NCBI GenBank assembly: GCA_019634575.1
Contig: JAHCAY010000002.1
Coordinates: forward strand, 294,897 to 358,896
Source: Candidatus Didemnitutus sp.
Lineage (GTDB): Bacteria; Verrucomicrobiota; Verrucomicrobiia; Opitutales; Opitutaceae
Direction of reading: 5' to 3'
DNA length: 64,000 bases
Position 1 is the stretch's first letter, and the number at the start of each line of letters is the position of its first letter. The position numbers and the translations under genes were made by a program. Positions 5,046 through 53,129 of the stretch are shown in pieces. The notes below the pieces were generated by a model. The model ran no database searches. It saw only the letters and a program-made list of their open reading frames with translations, and was not told where the DNA came from.

Positions 5046-6359
5046 ATGAAAACACCCCTGCTCGTGGCCACCTGCATCCTCGCGCTCGTCATGCCGAGTC
5101 GCGCCTTCGCCGAGGAAGCGACGATCCTCCTCCCTTCCGATCAGATTGAAACCCTCGTCGCGCCCATCGCGCTCTATCCCGATCCGCTCGTCGCGCTGAT
5201 CCTGCCAGCGTCGACGCACCCGTCCGACGTGGTGCTCGCCGCGCGCTACCTCGCCGGTGGCGGTTCGCCCGAGACCGTCCTCGACCAGCCGTGGGACGAG
5301 ACCGTCAAGGCGCTCACGCGTTACCGCGAAGTCGTCGACTACCTCGACCGCAACCTCGAGTGGACCCGCCGGCTCGGCGACTGCTTCGCCGCGCAGCCCG
5401 ACGACGTCATGGACGCCATCCAGTCGCTCCGCGCCCGCGCGCGCGGTCAGGGCCTCCTCGCCGACAACGCCCAGCAGCAAGTCATCCTCGAATCCGACGA
5501 GATATGCATCGTCCCGACGAACCCGACCGTCATCTATATTCCGCGCTACGACCCCGTCGTGCTTTGCGGACCGATCGTCACGACCTACTTCGCGAGCAGC
5601 TGGCTCTCCTTTGGCGTCGCCTACAGCGTCGGCCCCTGGCTGAGCTACGACTGCGACTGGCGCTCGCACTACGTGCGCGTGAATCGCCGGCCCGCCAGCT
5701 GGTATTACCAACCCGACTGGCACCGCCGGCGCGAGTCGGTCGCCTGGACGCGCTGGACGCCGCCGCCCCGCCACGAGCGCCATTGGGAACGCGATGGCGA
5801 TGCTCCGCGCGGCAACGACCGCCGCTGGATCGGCGCCGGCCAGACCGTTTGGAACAACCCGCCGGCATCTCCGCGGCACGCGCCATCCGGCCCGTCTCGC
5901 GAGCGCGATTCCCGTTGGAACAACACTCGTCCGCGCCGCGAAACCGGCAACGAAATCGCCACCGCACCGAGCGTCGTCGCCACCGCCCCCGACGTCCCGA
6001 CCGCTCCTGTCGTCTCCTCGCAGCCTCCGGGCCGCAGCAATCAACCGCCCCCCGAGCGCACGCGCGAGCCGCGCCGCTTCCCGCGCAACGACGGCGACTC
6101 CCCACGCTCCGACCGCGGCCCGCGCTCCAATTCCCGGCCTCTCGGCGTCACCGGACCGATGACAAATCCGCCGCCGATGACGTCATCGCCCGTCGGTCCT
6201 CCGGTGCAACCGCCCGCACCGATGACCCGCAGCTACGAGCCGGCGAATCCACCCGCCCGCACCGAGCGCAGCGACCGGACCGACCGCTCCGACCGCGGCG
6301 ATCGCAACGACCGCGGTGGTCGCTGGGACCGCAACAACGACCGGCAACAACCGCGCTGA
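5046..6359 (+). CDS. DUF3300 domain protein with long Pro/Arg low-complexity tail
   Basis: Signal peptide, then QIETLVAPIALYPDPLVALILPAST...WDETVKAL...DVMDAIQSLRARA...ICIVPTNPTVIYIPRYDP. Confidence 0.9.
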   Translation: MKTPLLVATCILALVMPSRAFAEEATILLPSDQIETLVAPIALYPDPLVALILPASTHPSDVVLAARYLAGGGSPETVLDQPWDETVKALTRYREVVDYLDRNLEWTRRLGDCFAAQPDDVMDAIQSLRARARGQGLLADNAQQQVILESDEICIVPTNPTVIYIPRYDPVVLCGPIVTTYFASSWLSFGVAYSVGPWLSYDCDWRSHYVRVNRRPASWYYQPDWHRRRESVAWTRWTPPPRHERHWERDGDAPRGNDRRWIGAGQTVWNNPPASPRHAPSGPSRERDSRWNNTRPRRETGNEIATAPSVVATAPDVPTAPVVSSQPPGRSNQPPPERTREPRRFPRNDGDSPRSDRGPRSNSRPLGVTGPMTNPPPMTSSPVGPPVQPPAPMTRSYEPANPPARTERSDRTDRSDRGDRNDRGGRWDRNNDRQQPR

Positions 6360-26249: not shown

Positions 26250-26915
26250 ATGAAATCCTCGCGTATCCTCATTATCGACGACGATCAGCTCACTCGAGAT
26301 ATGCTCGAGGGCTGGTGCCTGCATTGCAGTGCCCATTGCACCACGGCGGCCTCCACTGCCGAAGCCGATGTCGCGCTCTCGACCGCGACCTTCGACGCCA
26401 TCATTTGCGACGTGCATCTGCCCGGCAACCGCCAGCTCAGCTGGGTCCGCCAGATCGTTTCCCAGGACACGTCGCCCGCCGTCATCATGATGACCGGCAA
26501 TCCGGAGCTGGAATCGACTCTCAGCGCCGCCAATCTCTCCGTCGCCGGTTACCTCGTGAAGCCGCTGAATCTCGTCATGCTGCGCGAACTCGTGACCGGC
26601 ATCGTCGACAACCGCCGGCAACAGCGCGCCCTGGTCGACCTCTCGCACGCCACCGCCCAATTGCTCGTCGCCGCCCGCAACAGCGAAGGCGGACAGGACC
26701 AACAACTTCAAGACCACCTCCTGCGACTGGCCCAGCAACTCCAGGCCCAATCGACCGTGCCGCGCACCGGCACGCTGGTCGGCCCGCTCCGCGAATCCGT
26801 CGCCGAAGCCATCGCCGTCCTCGAACGCACGAAGCACAGCTTCCGCTCCAAGGACCTCGGCGAACTCCGCCGCCGCCTCCAGCAAACGCTGGACACCGCC
26901 CGCGTCTCCGCCTGA
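26250..26915 (+). CDS. Response regulator with non-HTH helical C-terminal domain
   Basis: ILIIDDD, ICDVHLPG, MTG, YLVKP; helical tail ending RSKDLGELRRRL. Confidence 0.88.
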   Translation: MKSSRILIIDDDQLTRDMLEGWCLHCSAHCTTAASTAEADVALSTATFDAIICDVHLPGNRQLSWVRQIVSQDTSPAVIMMTGNPELESTLSAANLSVAGYLVKPLNLVMLRELVTGIVDNRRQQRALVDLSHATAQLLVAARNSEGGQDQQLQDHLLRLAQQLQAQSTVPRTGTLVGPLRESVAEAIAVLERTKHSFRSKDLGELRRRLQQTLDTARVSA

Positions 26916-27099
26916 GCGCGCCGCGTCTGGGTCCGTCGGACTACATGCGCGGTCCGCCTCAGCGCATCTTCTGATGCGAGGCTGTCCTAAAACTGGGTTC
27001 CACCGCAGGCCGCGTGCTTGCACACGCCCATTGCCCCCTGAGGCAGCGACCGGGATCGCTGTCTGCCATTTCAGCAAAGCGCTGCTTTCGGATGACTTC

Positions 27100-27127
27100 T
27101 AAAGTTCCGCGCGGACCTGACCGATAA
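27100..27127 (+). promoter_or_regulatory. Sigma28-like promoter of MCP gene
   Basis: TAAAGTTC-N12-ACCGATAA (TAAA-N16). Confidence 0.65.
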
Positions 27128-27244
27128 CAAAGGTAACGTTGCGGTGTGCCCCAGCACGACCGCCAGATCCGGGCTCGTTCCAGGCGGGCAAGAATCAGGA
27201 GCGACGTGTCGGCACGCCCTCGTGCCCGGTCCCACCGTATCCCC

Positions 27245-28798
27245 ATGAAATCGCTCTCCCTCGCCCAACGCATCTCCCTCGGATTTGCCACCGTCATCGC
27301 CATCACACTGGCGCTGGGAGCCATCTCCTTGAATCGCTTTTTCGCCGTATCTTCCGCCGGCGCCTACCTGGCCAACGATCCAGTGCCCGGCACGGTCGCC
27401 ATCCTGAAGATCAACGCGGAGTTCGAAAACCAGCTCGGCCTGCTCCGCGAATACATCTTCACCCCTGATCGCCCCAAAATCGCCGCGGAATACAACACGC
27501 AGATCGAACACGTCAAAAAGGTGCTCGCCGCCTACGACGTCACCATCACCGCCGCGGACGACCGCGCCATGTTCGAGGAGTTGCAGAAGGACTACCGCGA
27601 CTTCTCCACCGCCGCCGCCGAGATCATGGCCATGGTCGACGGCGGACGCGCGCAGGAGACGCTCAAGATCATGGACGACGGCATCGAGCCGATCTTCGCG
27701 CGGCTGGAAGGTCAGCTGAACAAGCTCATCGCCTTCAACGAATCGAATCTCGGAAACGGCGTCCAAAGCATCACCGAGGCCGCTTGGAGCGGGAAGAAAC
27801 TCCTCGTCGGCGGACTCATCCTCGCGATTGTCGCCGCCGTCGGCATCGCGTGGTTCATCACTCGCTCCACCAACCGCGCGCTCCACTCCATCGCCTCGCG
27901 CCTCGCCGCCGGCGCCGAACAAACCGCCGCCGCCGCCGGCCAGGTCTCCAGCTCCTCCCAATCCCTCGCCGAAGGCGCCAGCGAGCAAGCCGCCTCCCTC
28001 GAAGAAACCTCCGCGTCGCTCGAGGAGATGTCCTCGATGACCAAGCGCAACGCCGATAACGCCAGCCAGGCCAAGGACCTCTCCGCGCAAACCCGCACCG
28101 CCGCCGACACCGGCGCCGCGGACATGACCGAGATGAAATCGGCGATGGACGCCATCAAGCTCTCCTCCGGCGAAATCGCCAAGATCGTGAAGACGATCGA
28201 CGAGATCGCCTTCCAGACGAACATCCTCGCGCTCAACGCCGCGGTCGAAGCCGCCCGCGCCGGCGAGGCCGGAGCCGGCTTCGCCGTCGTCGCCGAGGAA
28301 GTGCGCGCCCTCGCCCAACGCTCCGCCACCGCCGCCAAGGAGAGCGCAGGCAAGATCGAAGACTCCGTCAACAAGAGCGAACACGGCGTCCGCATCTCCG
28401 GCAAAGTCGCCGACTCGCTCGGACAAATCGTCGACCGCGCACGCCGCGTCGACTCCCTCGTCGGCGAGATCGCCACCGCCTCCTCCGAGCAAAGCCAAGG
28501 CATCGTGCAGGTGAACCACGCCGTGTCGCAGATGGACAAGGTCACGCAAAGCAACGCCTCCGCCGCCGAGGAATCCGCCGCCGCCGCCGAGGAACTCAAT
28601 GCACAATCCGCCGAGGTCCAGCACCTCGTCCACGAACTGCTCCAGCTCATCGGCGGCCCGGCTCGCACCGACGGAAAATCGCCGACGCCAAACGCCATCA
28701 GCACGCGCCCCGTCGCCGCCGCTCGCCGCGCCCCGTCGCCGGTGAAGCCCGTCCGCCACGCCGCGCCGGCGCACGCCGAGGCGTTCGTCGACGCCTGA
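27245..28798 (+). CDS. Methyl-accepting chemotaxis protein (periplasmic four-helix-bundle-type sensor)
   Basis: Two TM helices; [43 protein letters not shown] signalling hairpin. Confidence 0.95.
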
Positions 28799-28847
28799 CG
28801 CGCTCATCTCTCCTCCCGCCGCCATCATTTTTCCCTTCACGCCTGCA

Positions 28848-29030
28848 ATGTCCGGTTCGCTCGCTCCTCAACCTCACCCGGCCTCCGCCAAACCAACGCC
28901 GCCCGCCGGAAAATCCATCCCGCCCGGACACGTCGCAGTGCTCTGCCCGGCCGGTTTCAACGCGACCAGCGTCAAAACCGTCGACCCGAAGAAAGCAGTC
29001 TACGCGCGCGTCACCTACCGGCCACACTGA
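28848..29030 (+). CDS. Small hypothetical protein (60 aa), paralogue of 33040..33258
   Basis: CPAGFNATSV...KAVYARVTY aligns without gaps to the 33040 ORF. Confidence 0.75.
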   Translation: MSGSLAPQPHPASAKPTPPAGKSIPPGHVAVLCPAGFNATSVKTVDPKKAVYARVTYRPH

Positions 29031-29143
29031 AGCCCTCCGCCGCGCCGGAGCCTCCCGACAGAACCGCTGGGCGTGCCGCACGCTGGGACGCCCTCACGAA
29101 GTTGGAATCAAGCGCTGCTCCTCACCGGGCGAGCCGAAGAGTG

Positions 29144-29167
29144 GTCGCCGGTTCCCGCACCGGCGAC
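29144..29167. terminator. 9-bp hairpin between convergent genes
   Basis: GTCGCCGGT-tcccgc-ACCGGCGAC. Confidence 0.4.
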
Positions 29168-29215
29168 AAACGCGTCGGTGCGGAGATCGACGCCCACCCG
29201 GCCGCGCGAGTCCGC

Positions 29216-29962
29216 TCAGGGTTTTCCGCCGAACAGTTTCTTGATGCCTTCGCCAGCTTTCTTGGCCGCATCCTTCGTCTGTTCGACCGTGTTGGCGCCG
29301 ATGGTGCCAGCGGTCTTGCTCAACGCCTCCGCGGTGCCGCTCACGATTCCGCCGAGCACATTGCGCATGATCGCGCCCGCCGCCTGGTCCGGCGTGATGC
29401 CGCCTTCCTTTGTGCCGAGGTTGTCGATCGAGATGGGCGGCAGCGGCACGGGCACCGCCGCGGCACCGACCCCGAGGCGCGCCACGCCGTTGGTCAGGCG
29501 GAATTTCTTGATCTCAAATTTGATCGGCTTGCCGTCCTTCGCCACCGGCTGCTTGGCCTCCGGGTTCTTGCCGCCGGAGAATTCCTCGATGTTCTTCAGC
29601 AGGTCCTTGATGTTGCTCGAGACGATCTTGGTCTCGTAGAGGAATTCCGGCCCATCGACCGTGATCTCCTCAATCACGATGTGGTCACCGAGCAGCGACA
29701 ACGGCCGGATGGCGACGTGCACCTTGCCGAGCTTGAACGCATCGCGCTCGGACCAACCCTTCGGATTGCCGACCGCCAGCCCGGTAAGCGTGCCCGAGCC
29801 GGTGAGCGGCGAGATGGACGCACCGGCGAGCTCCACCTTCGTCTGCGTGAGCTTCGGCCCGAAGGCGTTCACGCCGGCCTTGACGATAGAGCCGAGGAAG
29901 AAGGTCGCGCCGACATAGAGCACGACGACCAGCACGAGGACGATCAGCAGGAGCTTTTTCAT
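29216..29962 (-). CDS. AsmA-like N-terminally anchored protein
   Basis: N-terminal TM; SISPLTGSGTLTGLAVGNPKGW; IVIEEITVDGPE. Confidence 0.8.
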   Translation of the reverse strand: MKKLLLIVLVLVVVLYVGATFFLGSIVKAGVNAFGPKLTQTKVELAGASISPLTGSGTLTGLAVGNPKGWSERDAFKLGKVHVAIRPLSLLGDHIVIEEITVDGPEFLYETKIVSSNIKDLLKNIEEFSGGKNPEAKQPVAKDGKPIKFEIKKFRLTNGVARLGVGAAAVPVPLPPISIDNLGTKEGGITPDQAAGAIMRNVLGGIVSGTAEALSKTAGTIGANTVEQTKDAAKKAGEGIKKLFGGKP

Positions 29963-30017
29963 GGCGAGACCGAGCAAACCCGAGTCGCGCCCCGCCGCAA
30001 GCCGCGACCGCCGCCGC

Positions 30018-30710
30018 TCAGTCCGCCTCACCGCCGGCGTCGACGAGCCGATAGCCGCCGGGCACCGTGCGGATCCAGCGCGGGTCACCGGAGTCGTCGC
30101 CGATCTTCTGGCGCAGCCGCCAGACATGCGTGTCGACCGTGCGGGTCGCCGCCGTGGACGAGTAGCCCCACACCTTCTTCAACAACTCATCGCGCAGCAC
30201 CGCGCAACCGCGGCTGGCCCCCAGCTGCTCGAGCAACTTGAACTCGATCTGGGTCAGCGCGAGCGGTTGGCCGTCCTTCTCCGCGGTGCGGGCCGCCAGG
30301 TCGATCCGCACGGCGCCGAGTTGGAGCACTTCCTGTTGCTTGGTCCCGCGCGCCCGGCGCAGCACGGCGTTCACCCGCGCGAGCAGTTCGCGAAATGCGC
30401 ACGGCTTGCTCACGAAATCGTCCGCCCCGCTGCTCAGCGCGCGCACGATCTCGTCGGTGCCGTCGGCACCGGTCAGCATGATGATGCCACCGCGAAAACC
30501 GCGGTCGCGCAGTTCCTGGAGCGTGCGCCAGCCGTTCTGCCGCGGCATATCGATGTCGAGCAGCACGAGATCGGGCGCCGCGCGCTCGACCGCGGCGACG
30601 CCTTGCTGGCCGTCCGCCGCCTCCGCCACCGTGTAGCCGGCGCGGCGCAGCACCTCGGCCGTCGTGTCGCGGAGCACCGCGTCGTCGTCGATGAGAAGCA
30701 GGGAATTCAA
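30018..30710 (-). CDS. OmpR/PhoB family response regulator (no adjacent cognate kinase)
   Basis: TTG start; LLIDDD, LLDIDMP, GADDFVSKP; winged-helix tail RTVDTHVWRLRQK...IRTVPGGYRL. Confidence 0.92.
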   Translation of the reverse strand: MNSLLLIDDDAVLRDTTAEVLRRAGYTVAEAADGQQGVAAVERAAPDLVLLDIDMPRQNGWRTLQELRDRGFRGGIIMLTGADGTDEIVRALSSGADDFVSKPCAFRELLARVNAVLRRARGTKQQEVLQLGAVRIDLAARTAEKDGQPLALTQIEFKLLEQLGASRGCAVLRDELLKKVWGYSSTAATRTVDTHVWRLRQKIGDDSGDPRWIRTVPGGYRLVDAGGEAD

Positions 30711-30768
30711 GGCTGACCCGATCGTTTAGGGATGAGCATCGTCGCGGGCCCACGCGAGTTGAGAGCTT

Positions 30769-30785
30769 TGTGACAAGCTCGTGAC
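30769..30785. promoter_or_regulatory. Putative OmpR/PhoB-type tandem box 1
   Basis: TGTGAC-aagct-CGTGAC (11-bp period), about 60 nt upstream of the response regulator. Confidence 0.45.
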
Positions 30786-31233
30786 ACAGGATGTCCGCGA
30801 ACGGGCCGCTATTTCGAGTAGATTTTAACGCCCGTCTCGCGCGTGCGTCACCCTGCCCATCCTGTCGCCATGTATTCCGGCCTTATCGCCCTCGCTCGCT
30901 GCGTCCTCCCGGACGCCACGCCGGCCGTGGCCCGAAACACCGGACGCGGGACGGTCTCACTTTCCACTCGCGCCGAAGGAGCGCCGCGCGCGGGCATGTT
31001 GCACGGCGGGGCGCGAGTGTCGTCCGCCACCGCGCTGGCGGGCTCCCTTTCGCTTCCGGGCGCCGCGACGGCCCCGGTTCATTTTGCCTGACAGGGGCAA
31101 TGCAGCATCCGGTCGTCGGGGGACACCGGATGCTGCCCTCCTGTCGGGGCACCCGCCCACCGCCGCCTGATCGCGCGAGCCTCGCGCGAGGATCTCGGAC
31201 AAAGCCCTACCGAGAGCGGGGATATTTCCCGCT

Positions 31234-31250
31234 TGTGACCATTCTGTGAC
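31234..31250. promoter_or_regulatory. Putative OmpR/PhoB-type tandem box 2
   Basis: TGTGAC-cattc-TGTGAC (11-bp period), 70 nt upstream of the second MCP. Confidence 0.5.
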
Positions 31251-31319
31251 ATGAGCGCGCCCGCTCACGGCACGATATTCACACAGCGGACCTAGCGACC
31301 AGCCCCACCCCACTGCCCC

Positions 31320-32972
31320 ATGAAACTCGGAACCAAGATCGTTCTCGCGAGCATCATCGCCATTCTCCTCACCGTCGGTAGCGCGCTGCTCGTCCAGCGC
31401 AACATCATCCAAAAACAGGGCGTCGCGCTGACGCTCGACACCATGCGGGCCGCCGTCGTCGAAGCCGAGAACGTCCGCGAAAGCATCTCCAAACTCGGCG
31501 AAGGCGGCGCCTTCGATCGCCCCAAACTCCTCGCCGAATACAAAGCCACGGGCGACCTCCGTGGCTCCACCCTCTATCGCACCATCCCGGTGGTCGCCGC
31601 GTGGGAAGCCATCGCCAAGGCCGCCAACCAGGCTGGCTACGAATTCCGCGTGCCGAAGAACGGCGCGCGCAACCCGAAGAACAACCCGACGCCGGCCGAG
31701 GCCGAGATCCTCCGCCAGCTCGAGAGCGGCACGCTGAACGAATTCGTCCGCGTCGACCGCGCCGCCAACGAGATCGTCTACGCCCGCCCGATCAAACTCA
31801 CGCAAGACTGCCTCACCTGCCACGGCGATCCCGCCAAGAGCGCCAGTGGCGACGGCAAGGACTTCCTCGGCTTCCGCATGGAAAATTGGAAAGCCGGCGA
31901 AGTGCACGGTGCCTTCGTGCTCAAAACCGATTTCACCCACGTCGACGAAGTCGTCCGCGCCGGCATGCTCCACAGCCTCGCCTGGGTGCTGCCGATCACC
32001 GCCCTCATGGGCCTCGGCTTCTACATCCTCAATCGCCGCCTCGTCGTGGCGCCACTCACCGCCTCGATCACCAGCATCCGCGACGCGTCCACCCAGACCA
32101 ACGCCGCCGCCCACCAGATCTCCGGCGCCAGCACCGGCCTCGCTGAAGGCGCCAGCGTCCAGGCCGCCTCCCTCGAGGAAACCTCCGCGTCACTCGAAGA
32201 AATGTCCTCGATGACCAAGCGCAACGCCGACCACGCCAGCGCCGCCCGCGCTACCGCCGGCACTGCCCGGCACGCCGCCGACGCCGGACACGAACGCATG
32301 CAGCAGATGCAGGGCGCCATGCACTCCATCGAACACGCCACTCAGGACATCACCAAGATCCTGAAGACGATCGACGAAATCGCCTTCCAGACGAACATCC
32401 TCGCACTCAACGCCGCCGTCGAAGCCGCCCGCGCCGGCGAAGCGGGCGCCGGTTTCGCCGTCGTCGCCGAGGAAGTCCGCGCCCTCGCCCAGCGCTGCGC
32501 CACCGCTGCCAAGGAAACCGCCGCGAAAATCGACGACTGCGTGCAAAAGAGCCAGCACGGCGTGCAAATCAGCACCGACGTCGCCGGCAGCTTCGATGAA
32601 ATCCAGAAGCAGGTGCGCGAGCTCGAAACCCTGATTACCGAGATCGCCAACGCCTCAGGCGAACAAGACACCGGCATTCACCAACTGAACCAAGCGGTGT
32701 CCGACATGGACCGCGTCACCCAAGGCAACGCCGCCCACGCCGAAGAGACCGCCGCCGCCGCCGCCGAGCTCGATTCTCAGACTCAGGCCCTCGATCGGGC
32801 CATTGCGGACCTCCGCCGCATCATCGGCGGCGACCTCGCGGCCCCCACCCTCACGTCCGCCGCCCCGCTCTCAAGCGCCCTCAAGCCAGCCGCAAAAGCC
32901 GCCCACGCTTCACGGCCGGCCGTCCCCGCTCCGCGCGCCAAGGCTCCGGCACCCGAGGGACACTTCGTCTAA
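31320..32972 (+). CDS. Methyl-accepting chemotaxis protein with c-type heme (Tll0287/DUF3365-like) sensor domain
   Basis: [31 protein letters not shown] (CxxCH), GEVHGAF; MCP hairpin [21 protein letters not shown]. Confidence 0.93.
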
Positions 32973-32997
32973 CCGACCACGCCGCGCTAGAATCCCC

Positions 32998-33024
32998 TAA
33001 ACTCCCTCGGAGTTTTGCCGATGC
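32998..33024 (+). promoter_or_regulatory. Sigma28-like promoter
   Basis: TAAA-N15-GCCGATGC, 15 nt before ATG 33040. Confidence 0.65.
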
Positions 33025-33039
33025 AAAGGCCGGCCCATC

Positions 33040-33258
33040 ATGCAAGAACCCGCCGCCACTTCAGCCGCTCCTTCGCCGGCCCCCTCTCCGTTCGATGAAG
33101 AGGAAGTCGTCGCGATGAGCGCTTCGCACATCGTGATCCACGCTCCGAAAGGCCGCTACATTACGATCATGTGCCCGGTGGGTTTCTCGCCCGGCAGCGT
33201 CGAAGGCATCGGCCTCGACAAGCCCCTCTTCGCGCGCGTCCGCTACCTGGCCTGCTGA
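33040..33258 (+). CDS. Small hypothetical protein (72 aa), paralogue of 28848..29030
   Basis: [10 protein letters not shown]...KPLFARVRY; has its own sigma28-like promoter. Confidence 0.75.
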
Positions 33259-33457
33259 GTTCCGGCCCGAGCGCCGCTTCCCGTCTCGTCACACCGTCGC
33301 TCGCCCGCGGCTACCCGCGAGACCCTGCCCGACACTGACGGCTTGCCACGCCGCCGTGCGGGCCCTCTGTAGATTGCGCGACGTCCACGCGCGCCCATCC
33401 GGCGCTCGCCGCGGCCGTCGTTCGATCCCTGTCCTCCGTTTTCCGTCCTCCGAAAAA

Positions 33458-35308
33458 ATGGCGTCCAACTACACCGAAGCCAGCATCAAGACCCTCAGCT
33501 CCCTCGAGCACATCCGCCTCCGCCCCGGCATGTATATCGGCCGGCTCGGCAACGGCACGCACGCCGAGGACGGCATCTACGTCCTGCTCAAGGAAACGAT
33601 CGATAACTCGATCGACGAGTTCACCATGGGCGCCGGCCGGAAGATCGAAGTCGAGATCGACGAGGAGCGCCGCCACATCCGCGTGCGCGACTACGGCCGC
33701 GGCATCCCGCTCGGCAAACTCGTGGACTGCGTCTCCATCATCAACACCGGCGCGAAATACGATTCCGAGACTTTCCAAAAAGCCGTCGGCCTCAACGGCG
33801 TCGGCCAGAAGGCCGTCAACGCCCTCGCGCTCAGCTACCGCGCCCAGGCCTTCCGCGACGGCGAGACCAAGGTCGTCGAATTCGAGAAGGGCAAACTCAA
33901 GTCGCAGTCCAAGGTCACGAAGTCCGACGAGCGCAACGGCACGCTGATCGAGTTCACGCCCGACGCGCAGCTCTTCGGCGCCGACTTCCGCTTCCGCCTC
34001 GAGTTCATCGAGGACATGCTCTGGAACTACGCCTTCCTCAACCGCGGCCTCACGCTCACGCTGAACGGCAAACCGTTCCGCTCGGAGAACGGCCTGAAGG
34101 ATCTGCTCACCAAGGAACTCTCCGGCGAGCCGCTCTACCCGATCATCCACCTCGAAGGCGAAGACATCGAAGTCGCCTTCACGCACGGCAACCACTACGG
34201 CGAAGAGTATTGGTCCTTCGTCAACGGCCAGCACACCACGATGGGCGGCACGCACCTCGCCGCCTTCCGCGAGGCGCTCGTCGAGACCCTCCGCAATCAC
34301 TTCAAGAAGGACTTCGACGCCGCCGACATCCGCCAGTCGATCGACGCCGCCGTCGCCGTCCGCGTGCAGGAACCCGTCTTCGAATCGCAGACGAAAACCA
34401 AACTCGGTTCGACCGACATGGGCCCGAAAGGCCCGACCCTGAAGGAATTCGTCGGCAAGTTCATGCAGCAGTCGCTCGACGTCTACCTGCACAAGAACCG
34501 CGAGGTCGCCGAAACCATCAAGCGCAAGATCGAGGAGAACGAGCACGAGCGCAAAGAACTCGCCGGCATTCGCAACATCGCCCGCGAACGCGCCAAGAAG
34601 GCCTCGCTCCACAACCGCAAGCTCCGCGACTGCCGCCTCCACCTCGGCGACCGCAACGAGCGCGCCGAGCAGAGCACGCTCTTCATCGTCGAAGGCGACT
34701 CCGCCGCCGGCTCGCTCACCTCCTGCCGCGACGTGCAGACGCAGGCCGTGTTCGCCCTGAAGGGCAAACCGCTCAACACCTACGGCCTCTCGAAGAAAGT
34801 CATCTACGAGAACGAGGAGTTTCACCTCCTGCAGTCCGCGCTGAACATCGAGGAAGGCATGGACGGCCTGCGCTACAACCGCATCGTCATCGCCACCGAC
34901 GCCGACGTCGACGGCATGCACATCCGCCTGCTGCTGATCTCGTTTTTCCTCCAGTTCTTCCCCGACCTCATCCGCAACGGCCACCTCTTCATCCTCGAGA
35001 CGCCGCTCTTCCGCGTCCGCAACAAGCGCAAGACGATCTACTGCTACGACGAGCGCGAGAAGCAGTCCGCCATCGCCGAACTCGGCGCCAGCCACGAGAT
35101 CACGCGCTTCAAAGGCCTCGGCGAAATCTCCTCGGGCGAGTTCAAGGACTTCATCGGCGAGAACATCCGCCTCGAACCGGTGAACCTGAACCACCTCTAC
35201 AGCTCCGAGGAACTCCTCGCCTTCTTCATGGGCAAGAACACGCCCGAGCGGCAGGACTTTATCATCGACAACCTCCGCGTGGAAAAGGACCTCGTCGAGA
35301 CGGCCTGA
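33458..35308 (+). CDS. parE: DNA topoisomerase IV subunit B (GyrB/ParE family)
   Basis: [47 protein letters not shown] region, [20 protein letters not shown]; short C-terminus. Confidence 0.92.
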
Positions 35309-49217: not shown

Positions 49218-51392
49218 ATGTCCAAGAAGAAACCGTCCAAGAAACCGACCGATCAGCCCGAACTCCCGCTGGACGCCGCCGCGCCCGCGCCGGAACCCAA
49301 AGCCGAGCCACCCGCTTCCGCCGAAACGCCTGCGACTGCCGACACCGCATCCGCCCAGCCCTCAGCTCTCAGCTCTCCGCCCTCCGCTCCCGCCGACGCC
49401 CCCCGTCGCGCCAAGGGCGAAAAGGTCCAGGACGAATCCGCGCCGCTCGCGAAAGCCTACCGCAACTGGTTTCTCGATTACGCCAGCTACGTCATCCTCG
49501 ACCGCGCCGTTCCGCATATCGACGACGGCTTGAAGCCCGTCCAGCGCCGCGTGCTCCACACGCTCTGGGACATGGACGACGGCCGCTTCCACAAGGTCGC
49601 CAACGTCGTCGGCGCCACGATGAAGCTCCACCCGCACGGTGACGCCTCCATCGGCGCCGCGCTCGTCGGTATCGCGCAGCGCGGCTGGTTGATCGAGCCG
49701 CAGGGCAACTTCGGCAACACGATGACCGGCGACGAAGCCGCCGCCCCGCGTTACATCGAGGCGCGCCTCACGCCGTTCGCGCGCGAAGTGCTCTTCAACC
49801 CGAAGACCACCACCTGGCAGCTCAGCTACGACGGCCGCGCCAAGGAGCCCGTCACGCTCCCGGCGAAGTTCCCCATCGCGCTCCTCGAGGGCGCCGACGG
49901 CATCGCGGTCGGTCTCGCGACGAAGATACTCCCGCACAATTTCAACGACCTCTGCCGCGCCGCGATCAATCACCTCCAGGGAAAAACGTTCCGCATCCTC
50001 CCCGATTTTCCGACCGGCGGCACCGCCGACTTCACCGAATACAACGACGGCGAGCGCGGCGGCAAAGTGAAGGTCCGCGCCAAGATCGAAGCGCGCTCGA
50101 AATATCTCCTCGCGGTCACCGAGCTGCCCTTCGGCGTCACGACCGAGTCGCTCATCGAGTCGATCCTCTCGGCCAACGCCAAGGGCAAGATCAAGATCAA
50201 GCACGTCGACGACAACACCGCCGACTCCGTCGAAATCCTCATTCACCTCCCGCAAGGCTCCGAGCCCGAGAAGGTCATTCAGCAGCTCTACGTGTTCACC
50301 AGCTGCCAGGTGCAGCTCAATCCCGCCGCCTGCGTCATCGTCCGCGGCGAGAACGGCGAGGATAAACCCCAGTTCCTCGGCGTCCGCGAAATCCTCAAGC
50401 GCTCCGCCGAAGCCACCAAGGAGCTCCTGAAGCGCGAGCTCGAGATCAAGCTCGGCGAGCTCGAACAGCAATGGCACTGGGATTCCCTCGAACGCATCTT
50501 CATCGAGAACCGCATCTACCACCGCATCGAGAAATCGAAGACCTGGGAAAGCGTGCTCGAGGAAATCCGCACCGGCTTGAAGCCCTTCGTGAAGACGCTC
50601 CGCCGCGAAGTCACCGACGAGGACATCACGCGCCTGACCGAGATCCGCATCAAGCGCATCTCCGCCTACAACCGCTTCCAGGCCGACGAAGCCATCAAGA
50701 AGATCGAGGACGGCATCAAGGAGACCAAGGCCAACCTCAAGAACCTCACCGGCTACTCCGTCGCGTGGTTCGAGATGCTGCAGGAAAAATACGGCAAGGG
50801 CATCAAGCGCCGCACCAGCTACGACGAGATCGAGCAAATCGACGCCTCCGCCGTCGTCTCCGCCAACCAGCGCCTCTACGTCAACCGCGACGACGGCTTC
50901 ATCGGCCTCAACTGGCGCCAGCACGAATTCGTCACCGAGTGCACGATCCTCGACAGCGTGCTCACGATCATGGGCGATGCGTCGCTCAAGGTCACCAAGG
51001 TCGCCGACAAGGTTTTCATGGGCCGCGACATCCGGCACATCTCGATCTGGCCGAAGGACGGCGACCAGAAGTTCTACACCATGGTCTACCGCGACGGCCC
51101 CGATGGGAAAACGTTCGCGAAGAAATTCCAGATCGGCGGCCTCAGCCGCGACAAGCTCTACCCGCTCGCCAAGAGCGAAGGCTCGAAACTCGTCTGGCTC
51201 CACGTCGCCGACAAGGAGAAGGACATGCCGAAGCAGATCCACGTGAGCCTCGACGGCCGCAGTGGCGCGCGCGTGCGCGAGCTCGACTTCGACCTGACCG
51301 CGATCCCTGTCTCCACCCGCACTTCCAAGGGCCTGACGATCACCAAGTGGGCCGTGAAAGAAGTGAAGCCGAACGATCTGGAGCTGAAGTAG
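49218..51392 (+). CDS. parC: DNA topoisomerase IV subunit A (GyrA/ParC family)
   Basis: FLDYASYVI.DRA.P...DGLKPVQRR, HPHGD, APRYIEARL (catalytic Tyr), PDFPTGG. Confidence 0.92.
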   Translation: MSKKKPSKKPTDQPELPLDAAAPAPEPKAEPPASAETPATADTASAQPSALSSPPSAPADAPRRAKGEKVQDESAPLAKAYRNWFLDYASYVILDRAVPHIDDGLKPVQRRVLHTLWDMDDGRFHKVANVVGATMKLHPHGDASIGAALVGIAQRGWLIEPQGNFGNTMTGDEAAAPRYIEARLTPFAREVLFNPKTTTWQLSYDGRAKEPVTLPAKFPIALLEGADGIAVGLATKILPHNFNDLCRAAINHLQGKTFRILPDFPTGGTADFTEYNDGERGGKVKVRAKIEARSKYLLAVTELPFGVTTESLIESILSANAKGKIKIKHVDDNTADSVEILIHLPQGSEPEKVIQQLYVFTSCQVQLNPAACVIVRGENGEDKPQFLGVREILKRSAEATKELLKRELEIKLGELEQQWHWDSLERIFIENRIYHRIEKSKTWESVLEEIRTGLKPFVKTLRREVTDEDITRLTEIRIKRISAYNRFQADEAIKKIEDGIKETKANLKNLTGYSVAWFEMLQEKYGKGIKRRTSYDEIEQIDASAVVSANQRLYVNRDDGFIGLNWRQHEFVTECTILDSVLTIMGDASLKVTKVADKVFMGRDIRHISIWPKDGDQKFYTMVYRDGPDGKTFAKKFQIGGLSRDKLYPLAKSEGSKLVWLHVADKEKDMPKQIHVSLDGRSGARVRELDFDLTAIPVSTRTSKGLTITKWAVKEVKPNDLELK

Positions 51393-52848: not shown

Positions 52849-53037
52849 TCAACCGACCCGCCGTTTGCGCCGATAGAGTTTCTGTCCGCCGGCCCTTTCA
52901 GGAAACTTCTCAGGTATTCCATCCCGATCCATGCCGCTGCGACCACGCCTCAGTAGTCCACGCCCTTCGCGGAGCTTACGCGGTGACGGATGCCGGTCGC
53001 CAAGGCTCGGCCACCGAATTGGTCAACTGGCTTGAAC
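52849..53037 (+). other. Duplicated non-coding element, copy A (sigma28-like promoter plus ~160 nt conserved downstream)
   Basis: TCAA-N16-GCCGATAG; aligns to 56083..56270 (13 substitutions and 1 indel over the 95-nt core by manual alignment). Confidence 0.75.
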
Positions 53038-53129
53038 GAACTGGCGGACACTTTTCTTTATTTCCCGTTCGCGACCGCAGTGCCGCTGGACATCGCCGAT
53101 CGGTCGCCCGCCACTCGGACCGGCACTGC

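Follow-up and report, generated by a model that had tools for sequence, protein, structure and literature searches.

Small accessory proteins encoded together with chemotaxis genes are known from Sinorhizobium meliloti (CheS and CheT) and from Caulobacter (CheU and CheE). Where their action is known, they bind a core chemotaxis protein. Other small proteins, such as PmrD, MgrB and SafA, serve as connectors or regulators of two-component systems, and the anti-sigma-28 protein FlgM (Pfam PF04316) is small, largely disordered and transcribed from a sigma-28-type promoter. Small proteins are systematically under-annotated, and to our knowledge chemotaxis in Verrucomicrobia has remained almost unstudied. 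Here we analyze a stretch of 64,000 nucleotides (referred to as the window, GC about 67%) from Candidatus Didemnitutus sp. (assembly GCA_019634575.1, contig JAHCAY010000002.1, positions 294,897 to 358,896), which carries two micro-genes, ORF1 and ORF2, each located shortly after a gene for a methyl-accepting chemotaxis protein (MCP).

The two micro-proteins resemble CheS, CheT, CheU and CheE in having fewer than 100 residues, in lying beside chemotaxis genes and in being restricted to one lineage. Whereas the Che proteins are encoded inside che operons with cheA, cheY or cheR, the micro-genes adjoin receptor genes only, and not always; there is no evidence of homology, and the micro-proteins have no Pfam or NCBIfam match. 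PmrD, MgrB and SafA are likewise small, lineage-specific and encoded near two-component genes. MgrB and SafA, however, are membrane proteins, whereas the micro-proteins have no hydrophobic segment, and the sequence and fold searches revealed no similarity. As to promoters, the difference from the sigma-28 promoters of enteric bacteria is that a relaxed form of the motif described below also precedes kinase and regulator genes, and the regulon is perhaps wider.

A paralogous pair of small proteins

ORF1 and ORF2 are true paralogues and belong to an undescribed, conserved family of small proteins. The two micro-genes and the receptor genes before them are arranged as follows.

27245..28798, forward strand: MCP1, chemoreceptor gene (4HB_MCP_1 sensor and MCPsignal domain)
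28848..29030, forward strand: ORF1, A-type micro-protein of 60 amino acids
31320..32972, forward strand: MCP2, chemoreceptor gene (Tll0287-like sensor and MCPsignal domain)
33040..33258, forward strand: ORF2, B-type micro-protein of 72 amino acids (47 from an alternative ATG at 33115)

The gaps are 49 nt between the end of MCP1 (28798) and ORF1 and 67 nt between the end of MCP2 (32972) and ORF2, as a sequence-only reading of this DNA had given them. Both receptors match MCPsignal (PF00015) over its gathering score, at 154.9 bits for MCP1 (2.5e-45) and 147.8 bits for MCP2 (3.7e-43), and each has an N-terminal sensor domain (PF12729, 2.3e-15, and PF11845, 4.9e-24, respectively). ORF1 starts with MSGS and continues through a Pro/Ala-rich linker into the conserved C-terminal module PPGHVAVLCPAGFNATS.K.VDPKKAVYARVTYRPH. 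ORF2 has an acidic N-terminus rich in Pro, Ala and Ser, and its conserved part is again C-terminal.

The ungapped 25-residue cores reported for the two proteins were both found in the sequence and are identical at 11 of 25 positions. BLASTP extends the ungapped similarity to 30 residues with 37% identity (pairwise E 9e-8), and the motifs CPxGF and [FY]ARVxY, looked for in all six frames of the window, are confined to the two ORFs. The homology was established by a cross-family test, in which hidden Markov models (HMMs) built from homologues in other genomes were searched against 1052 translated segments of the window. The ORF2-type HMM found the ORF1 frame as its best non-self match (E 1.4e-5, runner-up 1.4), and the ORF1-type HMM matched ORF2 at E 1.4e-7 (runner-up 0.13). 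Intermediate sequences also link the two types; P0024, for example, has a 13-residue stretch in common with the B type and ARVTYRP in common with the A type. Chance similarity and spurious ORFs are ruled out by these HMMs together with the codon-level selection described below.

Of the homologous clusters, 19 came from a profile search against 5.8 billion protein clusters, 17 more from an exhaustive HMMER search of 1.84 billion representatives and another 13 from a word-indexed search. The family comprises about 50 protein clusters, with members of 47-125 residues as called. The homologues of ORF1 (A-type) are P0016-P0019 and P0049 and those of ORF2 (B-type) P0002-P0015. All named sources belong to Opitutae/Opitutaceae: Oleiharenicola sp. 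Vm1, Candidatus Didemnitutus, Lacunisphaera limnophila (Verru16b_00289) and groundwater metagenome-assembled genomes. The statement that the proteins fall into no recognised family also holds. Neither ORF matches a Pfam family at E<=1, the only NCBIfam match is far below threshold (TIGR02634, 12.6 bits against a cut-off of 389.55), and 40 family members searched singly gave no Pfam family at E<0.1 and none that matched more than two members. No paper on the family was found. The genes themselves are already held in public annotation as 'hypothetical protein' (HZA32_06005, HYV96_05745, Verru16b_00289), and what is new is the definition of the family, the paralogy and the regulatory signature. 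One aberrant relative was seen at L015 (19-171), where a 50-residue ORF joins a NAD-kinase-like motif (GMNCGTVGFLMN) to the C-terminus of the family; this ORF is either a degenerate copy, the outcome of recombination or a chimera created in assembly.

Selection was analyzed on 37 core codons within each subfamily. Across the family, the ratio of non-synonymous to synonymous change (dN/dS) is 0.03-0.2 at a synonymous divergence (pS) of 0.4-0.7; ORF1 against its close orthologues gives 0.08-0.15 at pS 0.4-0.65, and values for ORF2 mostly fall between 0.03 and 0.2. Between the window and L002, 19 changes are synonymous and 5 are non-synonymous. Variable columns of the B subfamily are distributed over the three codon positions as 14/5/31, so that the third position varies at 31 of 37 codons. 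The G+C content at third positions (GC3) of the ORF2 core is 0.85, comparable to that of the neighbouring genes (0.87 in MCP1). Because purifying selection is this strong, the micro-genes encode proteins: judged by their codons, they are translated and under purifying selection, not conserved non-coding DNA.

The contrary view is that the ORFs are untranslated, an outcome that the sequence-only reading had named as one that would undo its proposal; the similarity would then stem from conserved non-coding DNA or RNA behind paralogous MCP genes, or else from a hidden C-terminal extension of the MCPs. Long spurious ORFs are indeed common at 67% GC, the MCP signalling domains are themselves paralogous, and GC3 of the N-terminal parts is just 0.60-0.65. 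Yet the codon-position pattern and the low dN/dS fit coding sequence, and the amino acids are conserved over about 50 clusters despite saturated synonymous sites. Stand-alone copies exist with their own promoter and no upstream MCP, both ORFs lie in another frame than the MCP before them, and an in-frame stop, the TAA within the TAAA of the -35 element, separates MCP2 from ORF2. No Rfam family matches at E<=1 anywhere in 26800-33600, which includes the leader described below. This view is largely refuted, and we consider its remaining probability very small. The different frames, the in-frame stop and the stand-alone copies likewise led us to reject an MCP extension produced by frameshift or readthrough. 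An antisense ORF at 28698..29081 was also rejected as a real gene, having a GC3 of 0.66 and no codon signal, with a wobble pattern that fits the forward frames.

The start of ORF2 deserves comment. Its frame opens at 33001, and an internal Met opens an extra conserved B-type strand (MSASHIVIH), at which some gene callers start. Three observations favour the upstream ATG: the EVVAM codons that lead up to the internal Met differ solely in their third positions or by exchange of Val and Ile; all B-type orthologues have retained an ATG in frame, 25-35 codons ahead of the internal Met; and this ATG stands at a constant 14-15 nt after the -10 element. The AlphaFold2 (AF2) model also places a strand at the EVVAM region. 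On these sequence patterns, the start at 33040 is more likely than that at 33115.

In an alignment of 40 members, the proteins start as M-S/T/N-S-S, followed by a variable, indel-rich Pro/Ala/Ser segment of 20-40 residues. The conserved C-terminal module of about 35 residues reads h-x-h-h-[C/H]-P-x-G-[F/I]-x5-E-G-x-x-L-x-K-P-L-[F/Y]-A-R-V-T-Y-R-P, with an invariant Pro and with G, L, A, R, V and Y conserved at 90% or more. The disordered Pro/Ala/Ser N-termini noted before are present and are poorly predicted in both proteins, with a confidence (pLDDT) of about 50. AF2 run with the family alignment gave a mean confidence (pLDDT) of 70, about 80 in the core and from below 50 to 66 in the N-terminus. 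The model has strands at 23-26, 40-46 and 64-70 and a lone helix of four residues, and the C-terminal module is predicted to be a small three-stranded sheet. A profile search of PDB sequences gave no match at E<=10. Foldseek searches of the PDB with two models had best E-values of 2.6-4.7 at a probability of 0.11 or lower, a comparison in which models of moderate confidence could miss a fold. Member sequences contain no membrane or hydrophobic segment.

The Cys of the module had suggested redox or Cys-based modulation. A thiol-redox role is weakened because 7 of the 40 members have His and one has Gly at this position; as a speculation, exchange between Cys and His would suit a ligand position better. 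A ribosomally synthesized and post-translationally modified peptide precursor was considered and, by inference, rejected: the conserved part is C-terminal, the N-terminus varies and the surrounding genes include none for modification enzymes.

Promoter motifs and a structured leader

We use sigma-28-type for motifs that follow the consensus of sigma-28 (FliA, SigD, WhiG; group 3), TAAA-N15-GCCGATAA; the term describes the motif. The strict pattern was TAAA-N14-16-GCCGA[TA], and in the comparison of micro-gene upstream regions a relaxed match was a score of at least 9/12. Three regulatory features stand upstream of the genes listed above.

27100..27127, forward strand: sigma-28-type motif TAAAGTTC-N12-ACCGATAA, upstream of MCP1, score 11/12
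27138..27205, forward strand: structured 5' leader before MCP1, GUUGCGGUG-hairpin-GACCGCC, a second hairpin, then ..AGGAGCGAC
32998-33024, forward strand: sigma-28-type motif TAAA-N15-GCCGATGC, before ORF2 and 15 nt short of its ATG, score 10/12

Both elements and the spacing of the MCP1 and ORF2 motifs agree with the consensus. A sigma28-like promoter had been assigned to the second micro-gene before, and at the level of the motif the assignment is borne out. The ORF2 motif, with its 15-nt spacer, is the sole strict match in the 64-kb window, where 0.14 would be expected, and it has orthologues in L006, L022/23, L019 and L002; across these loci the spacer sequence differs, whereas both promoter elements (-35 and -10) are preserved. 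Dereplicated loci totalling 207 kb contain 8 strict matches, of which 7 are found within 300 nt upstream of a same-strand micro-gene and one before an MCP gene. Of the 21 micro-gene upstream regions, 18 contain a relaxed match, compared with 14% of random windows; the remaining three belong to A genes located 28-49 nt behind a 4HB MCP, including ORF1 of the window, which scores 7, the background level, and has no motif of its own. Since MCP1 has a motif and no terminator-like site precedes ORF1, a joint MCP1-ORF1 transcript from the motif at 27100..27127 is likely. No intrinsic terminator was found between MCP1 and ORF1 or between MCP2 and ORF2. A hairpin at 32992-33022 was discarded as an MCP2 terminator, being AT-rich, lacking conservation in L022 and sharing nucleotides with the conserved promoter elements.

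The relaxed motif occurs at 8 sites in the window versus 0.6 expected. Among its positions are 21801, 26189, 46352 and 37767 (reverse strand), which precede a dCache hybrid histidine kinase (HK) gene, a single-domain response regulator (RR) gene, a hybrid kinase gene and an unknown gene of 195 amino acids, respectively.

Conserved sigma-28-type motifs would also be expected if the micro-proteins were FlgM-type proteins of the flagellar regulon, in which the disordered N-terminus would be an export signal for flagellar type III secretion or a regulator-binding tail. The small size, the disordered N-terminus with its conserved M-S-x-S start and the short distance from -10 element to B-type ATG, which recalls late-gene mRNAs with very short leaders, point the same way. 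Nevertheless, with E-values up to 5 admitted, neither FlgM (PF04316) nor another Pfam family matches any member, the prediction for the conserved part is beta-strand, whereas the sigma-28-binding region of FlgM is helical, and no flagellar genes lie nearby. We regard the FlgM-type explanation as improbable.

The leader starts about 10 nt after the -10 element and is about 70 nt long. At 27138-27205 it matches the leader pattern, with 0.05 matches expected. The same leader stands before A-type genes in L006, L026, L025, L014 and L011, before MCP genes in the window (MCP1), in L003 (two) and in L025 (one), and before a secreted-protein gene in L001. The copies were located at 2071-2146 and 8558-8634 of L003, 7893-7971 and 8420-8496 of L025, 7903-7982 of L006, 7907-7984 of L026, 316-398 of L014 and 6248-6322 of L001. 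Outside the training set, a covariance model matched before another MCP gene and a secreted-protein gene. From a 10-sequence alignment (A7), RNAalifold derived a structure of 21 pairs, 11 of them with compensatory changes, and 92% of cells paired, compared with 31-54% in slid controls; the structure was derived from and scored on the same alignment. Because G-U pairs occur, the structure is strand-specific and thus forms in the RNA. A trimmed re-alignment (A8) recovered hairpin 1 only, which also has independent support, and the outer stem and hairpin 2 rest on alignment A7. The leader may be an undescribed cis-regulatory RNA of Opitutaceae.

In relatives that have no MCP1, the promoter-leader cassette stands directly before the A gene; in the window, MCP1 is located between the cassette and ORF1. 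The cassette common to A genes and MCP genes is, at the level of predicted signals, evidence of co-regulation that is independent of adjacency.

A second RNA candidate was observed elsewhere in the window. At 52849-53060 and 56083-56290 (forward strand) there are two copies of an element, 80% identical over about 190 nt, after a sigma-28-like TCAA-N16-GCCGATAG/AT. The element has stops in all frames and matches no Rfam family. Its 5' GUCCGCC is complementary to a 3' GGCGGAC, which in copy 1 is followed by a T-run, and the folding z-score of -1.3 is unremarkable by itself. The element is a candidate for a duplicated small RNA.

Synteny and chemoreceptor adjacency

The sequence-only reading saw in the micro-proteins a receptor-associated accessory protein, which is a reasonable hypothesis, and it took the repeated order of MCP gene and micro-gene as hard to explain by chance. 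All recovered loci are versions of one syntenic block, with the order dCache-HK, HK/RR and RR genes, LysE (reverse), A-type gene, DUF748/AsmA-like gene (reverse), OmpR-type RR gene (reverse), B-type gene, parE and parC. MCP genes are inserted at varying positions within it. Further members of the block in the window are listed here.

29216..29962, reverse strand: DUF748/AsmA-like gene (Pfam PF05359), convergent with ORF1
30018..30710, reverse strand: OmpR-type response regulator gene (Pfam Response_reg and Trans_reg_C), part of the syntenic backbone
33461-35308: parE-like gene
49218-51392: parC-like gene

After dereplication, 22 micro-gene instances were tallied. An MCP gene is immediately upstream in about 9 of them (both genes of the window, L010, L011, L012, L001, L004, L017 and L022/23) and immediately downstream in 4-5 (L002, L003, L025, the P0039 contig, with a 4-nt overlap by gene call, and probably L019), which brings adjacency on either side to about 13-14 of 22, all within one block of one family. 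The adjacent MCPs belong to at least four sensor classes (4HB, Tll0287, Cache_3-Cache_2 and Pro_CA-4HB), those of L001, L002, L003 and L025 having no identified sensor domain. There is a link to chemoreceptor genes, in that MCP adjacency is frequent and a promoter and leader are common to both, but at least five instances have no MCP beside them. The argument from repetition does not stand, as MCP genes come and go on either side. What the window shows is for the most part the result of an ancient micro-gene duplication inside a vertically inherited block with many receptor genes, not two independent associations, and 'MCP then micro-gene' is not a conserved unit. Because MCP adjacency is frequent and not required, the micro-proteins do not seem dedicated to the neighbouring receptor.

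Several observations weigh against a tie to chemoreception. The instances with no adjacent MCP are both paralogues in L006/L007, the A' gene of L016, L026 and L028. The adjacency counts are not phylogenetically independent, since all instances come from one family and one syntenic block, and this block is generally rich in signalling genes. Neither the window nor the loci showed a cheA, cheW, cheY or flagellar gene, and no fusion of the module to a chemotaxis or other domain was found among the 1.84 billion representative proteins, in which the sole long match (5462 amino acids) covers just 14-residue stretches. The relaxed motif of the window also precedes histidine-kinase and response-regulator genes; it may define a broad sensory and motility regulon, perhaps wider than motility. 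Tll0287 MCP genes upstream of B genes mostly have no motif. The structural model is moderately confident and has no fold relatives, and no RNA run contains this sequence, parts of which are present in four DNA metagenome runs.

A different explanation is that the micro-proteins are real but unrelated to chemoreceptors, with MCP genes repeatedly inserted into or lost from a hotspot of signalling and envelope genes; in that case their target could be the adjacent two-component systems, as with small connector proteins elsewhere, or they could act together with the DUF748/AsmA-like protein. LysE, DUF748 and the OmpR-type regulator, rather than MCPs, are indeed the constant neighbours. The gene of L026 and L028 is located between LysE and a regulator or parE, and that of L014 and L025 follows a single-domain response regulator. 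L006/L007, with its two paralogues and no MCP at their sides, and the motif before HK and RR genes of the window also speak for it. What this explanation leaves unaccounted for is the specific promoter-plus-leader cassette common to A-type genes and MCP genes. Nor does it explain why clearly more than half of the instances have an MCP gene, on one side or the other and of varied sensor type, as their immediate neighbour on the same strand. Also, the micro-proteins have no membrane segment, unlike many small kinase regulators. We rate this explanation as rather unlikely.

The block itself offers further observations. The DUF748/AsmA-like gene is the most constant neighbour of A-type genes, in an arrangement also found in L006-L013, which is context and does not imply a functional link. 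The OmpR-type regulator is kept in L004, L006, L017, L019, L023, L025 and L026. In L016, an A-like gene (1172-1285) and a B-type gene (1433-1636) stand in tandem after LysE, about 150 nt apart with nothing between them, an order that is possibly ancestral for the duplicated genes. In L006, though not in the window, parE is directly followed by T6SS Hcp-domain genes (12636-15382). The parE-like and parC-like genes for topoisomerase IV subunits are 14 kb apart in the window and adjacent in L025 and L028; the DNA between them holds an S41 peptidase gene, a hybrid kinase gene and a candidate reverse-strand ORF of 1296 amino acids picked by GC3 only, and the separation suggests an insertion or rearrangement. 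The ParE of the window is 94% identical to that of Oleiharenicola sp. Vm1, and the window is closest to Oleiharenicola. The periplasmic Tll0287-like sensor of MCP2 carries a CxxCH motif (DCLTCHG), which suggests a covalently bound c-type haem. Because of this motif, MCP2 may be a redox- or gas-sensing chemoreceptor.

Proposed function and significance

We propose that the family of ORF1 and ORF2 consists of lineage-restricted cytoplasmic proteins of 60-80 residues with a flexible tail and a C-terminal beta module, which would be expressed together with chemoreceptor and late-motility genes. The micro-proteins are probably small binding or adaptor modules, in which the beta module would dock on a partner and the tail would serve as tether or spacer. 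The partner would be found in the chemosensory or motility apparatus and could be the signalling domain of a receptor, CheA, CheW, CheR or the motor. That they are made with the chemoreceptor and late-motility regulon and also act as binding modules there has, both parts taken together, about an even chance of being right; the existence and co-regulation of the micro-proteins are much more secure than the identity of the partner. From the regulatory motifs and gene context, a role in motility or chemotaxis is plausible. A more detailed picture can be drawn tentatively, as a possibility that may well prove wrong: chemosensory micro-proteins specific to Opitutaceae, expressed from sigma-28-type promoters, one of them via a new leader, would dock on the array or its enzymes and tune signalling, with the Cys/His position perhaps binding a metal or cofactor where the subunits of an oligomer meet.

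Oleiharenicola sp. Vm1 is a coccus that can be cultivated, has flagella and is motile (PMC12388122). Its locus (L001) carries a B-type gene at 5977-6141, which makes the motility hypothesis directly testable in this organism.

Overall, the micro-proteins form an undescribed and narrowly distributed family, for which a regulatory link to chemoreception, in place of an obligate MCP partner, is plausible. A sigma-28-type promoter, accompanied in one paralogue by a covarying leader that receptor genes also have, is the regulatory signature to which the pair can be tied, and it offers a testable entry to motility-linked expression in bacteria that are abundant in soil and freshwater. Binding to the receptor array would make the micro-proteins a new accessory component of it; otherwise, they would be a clean example of a lineage-specific small-protein family without a known fold.

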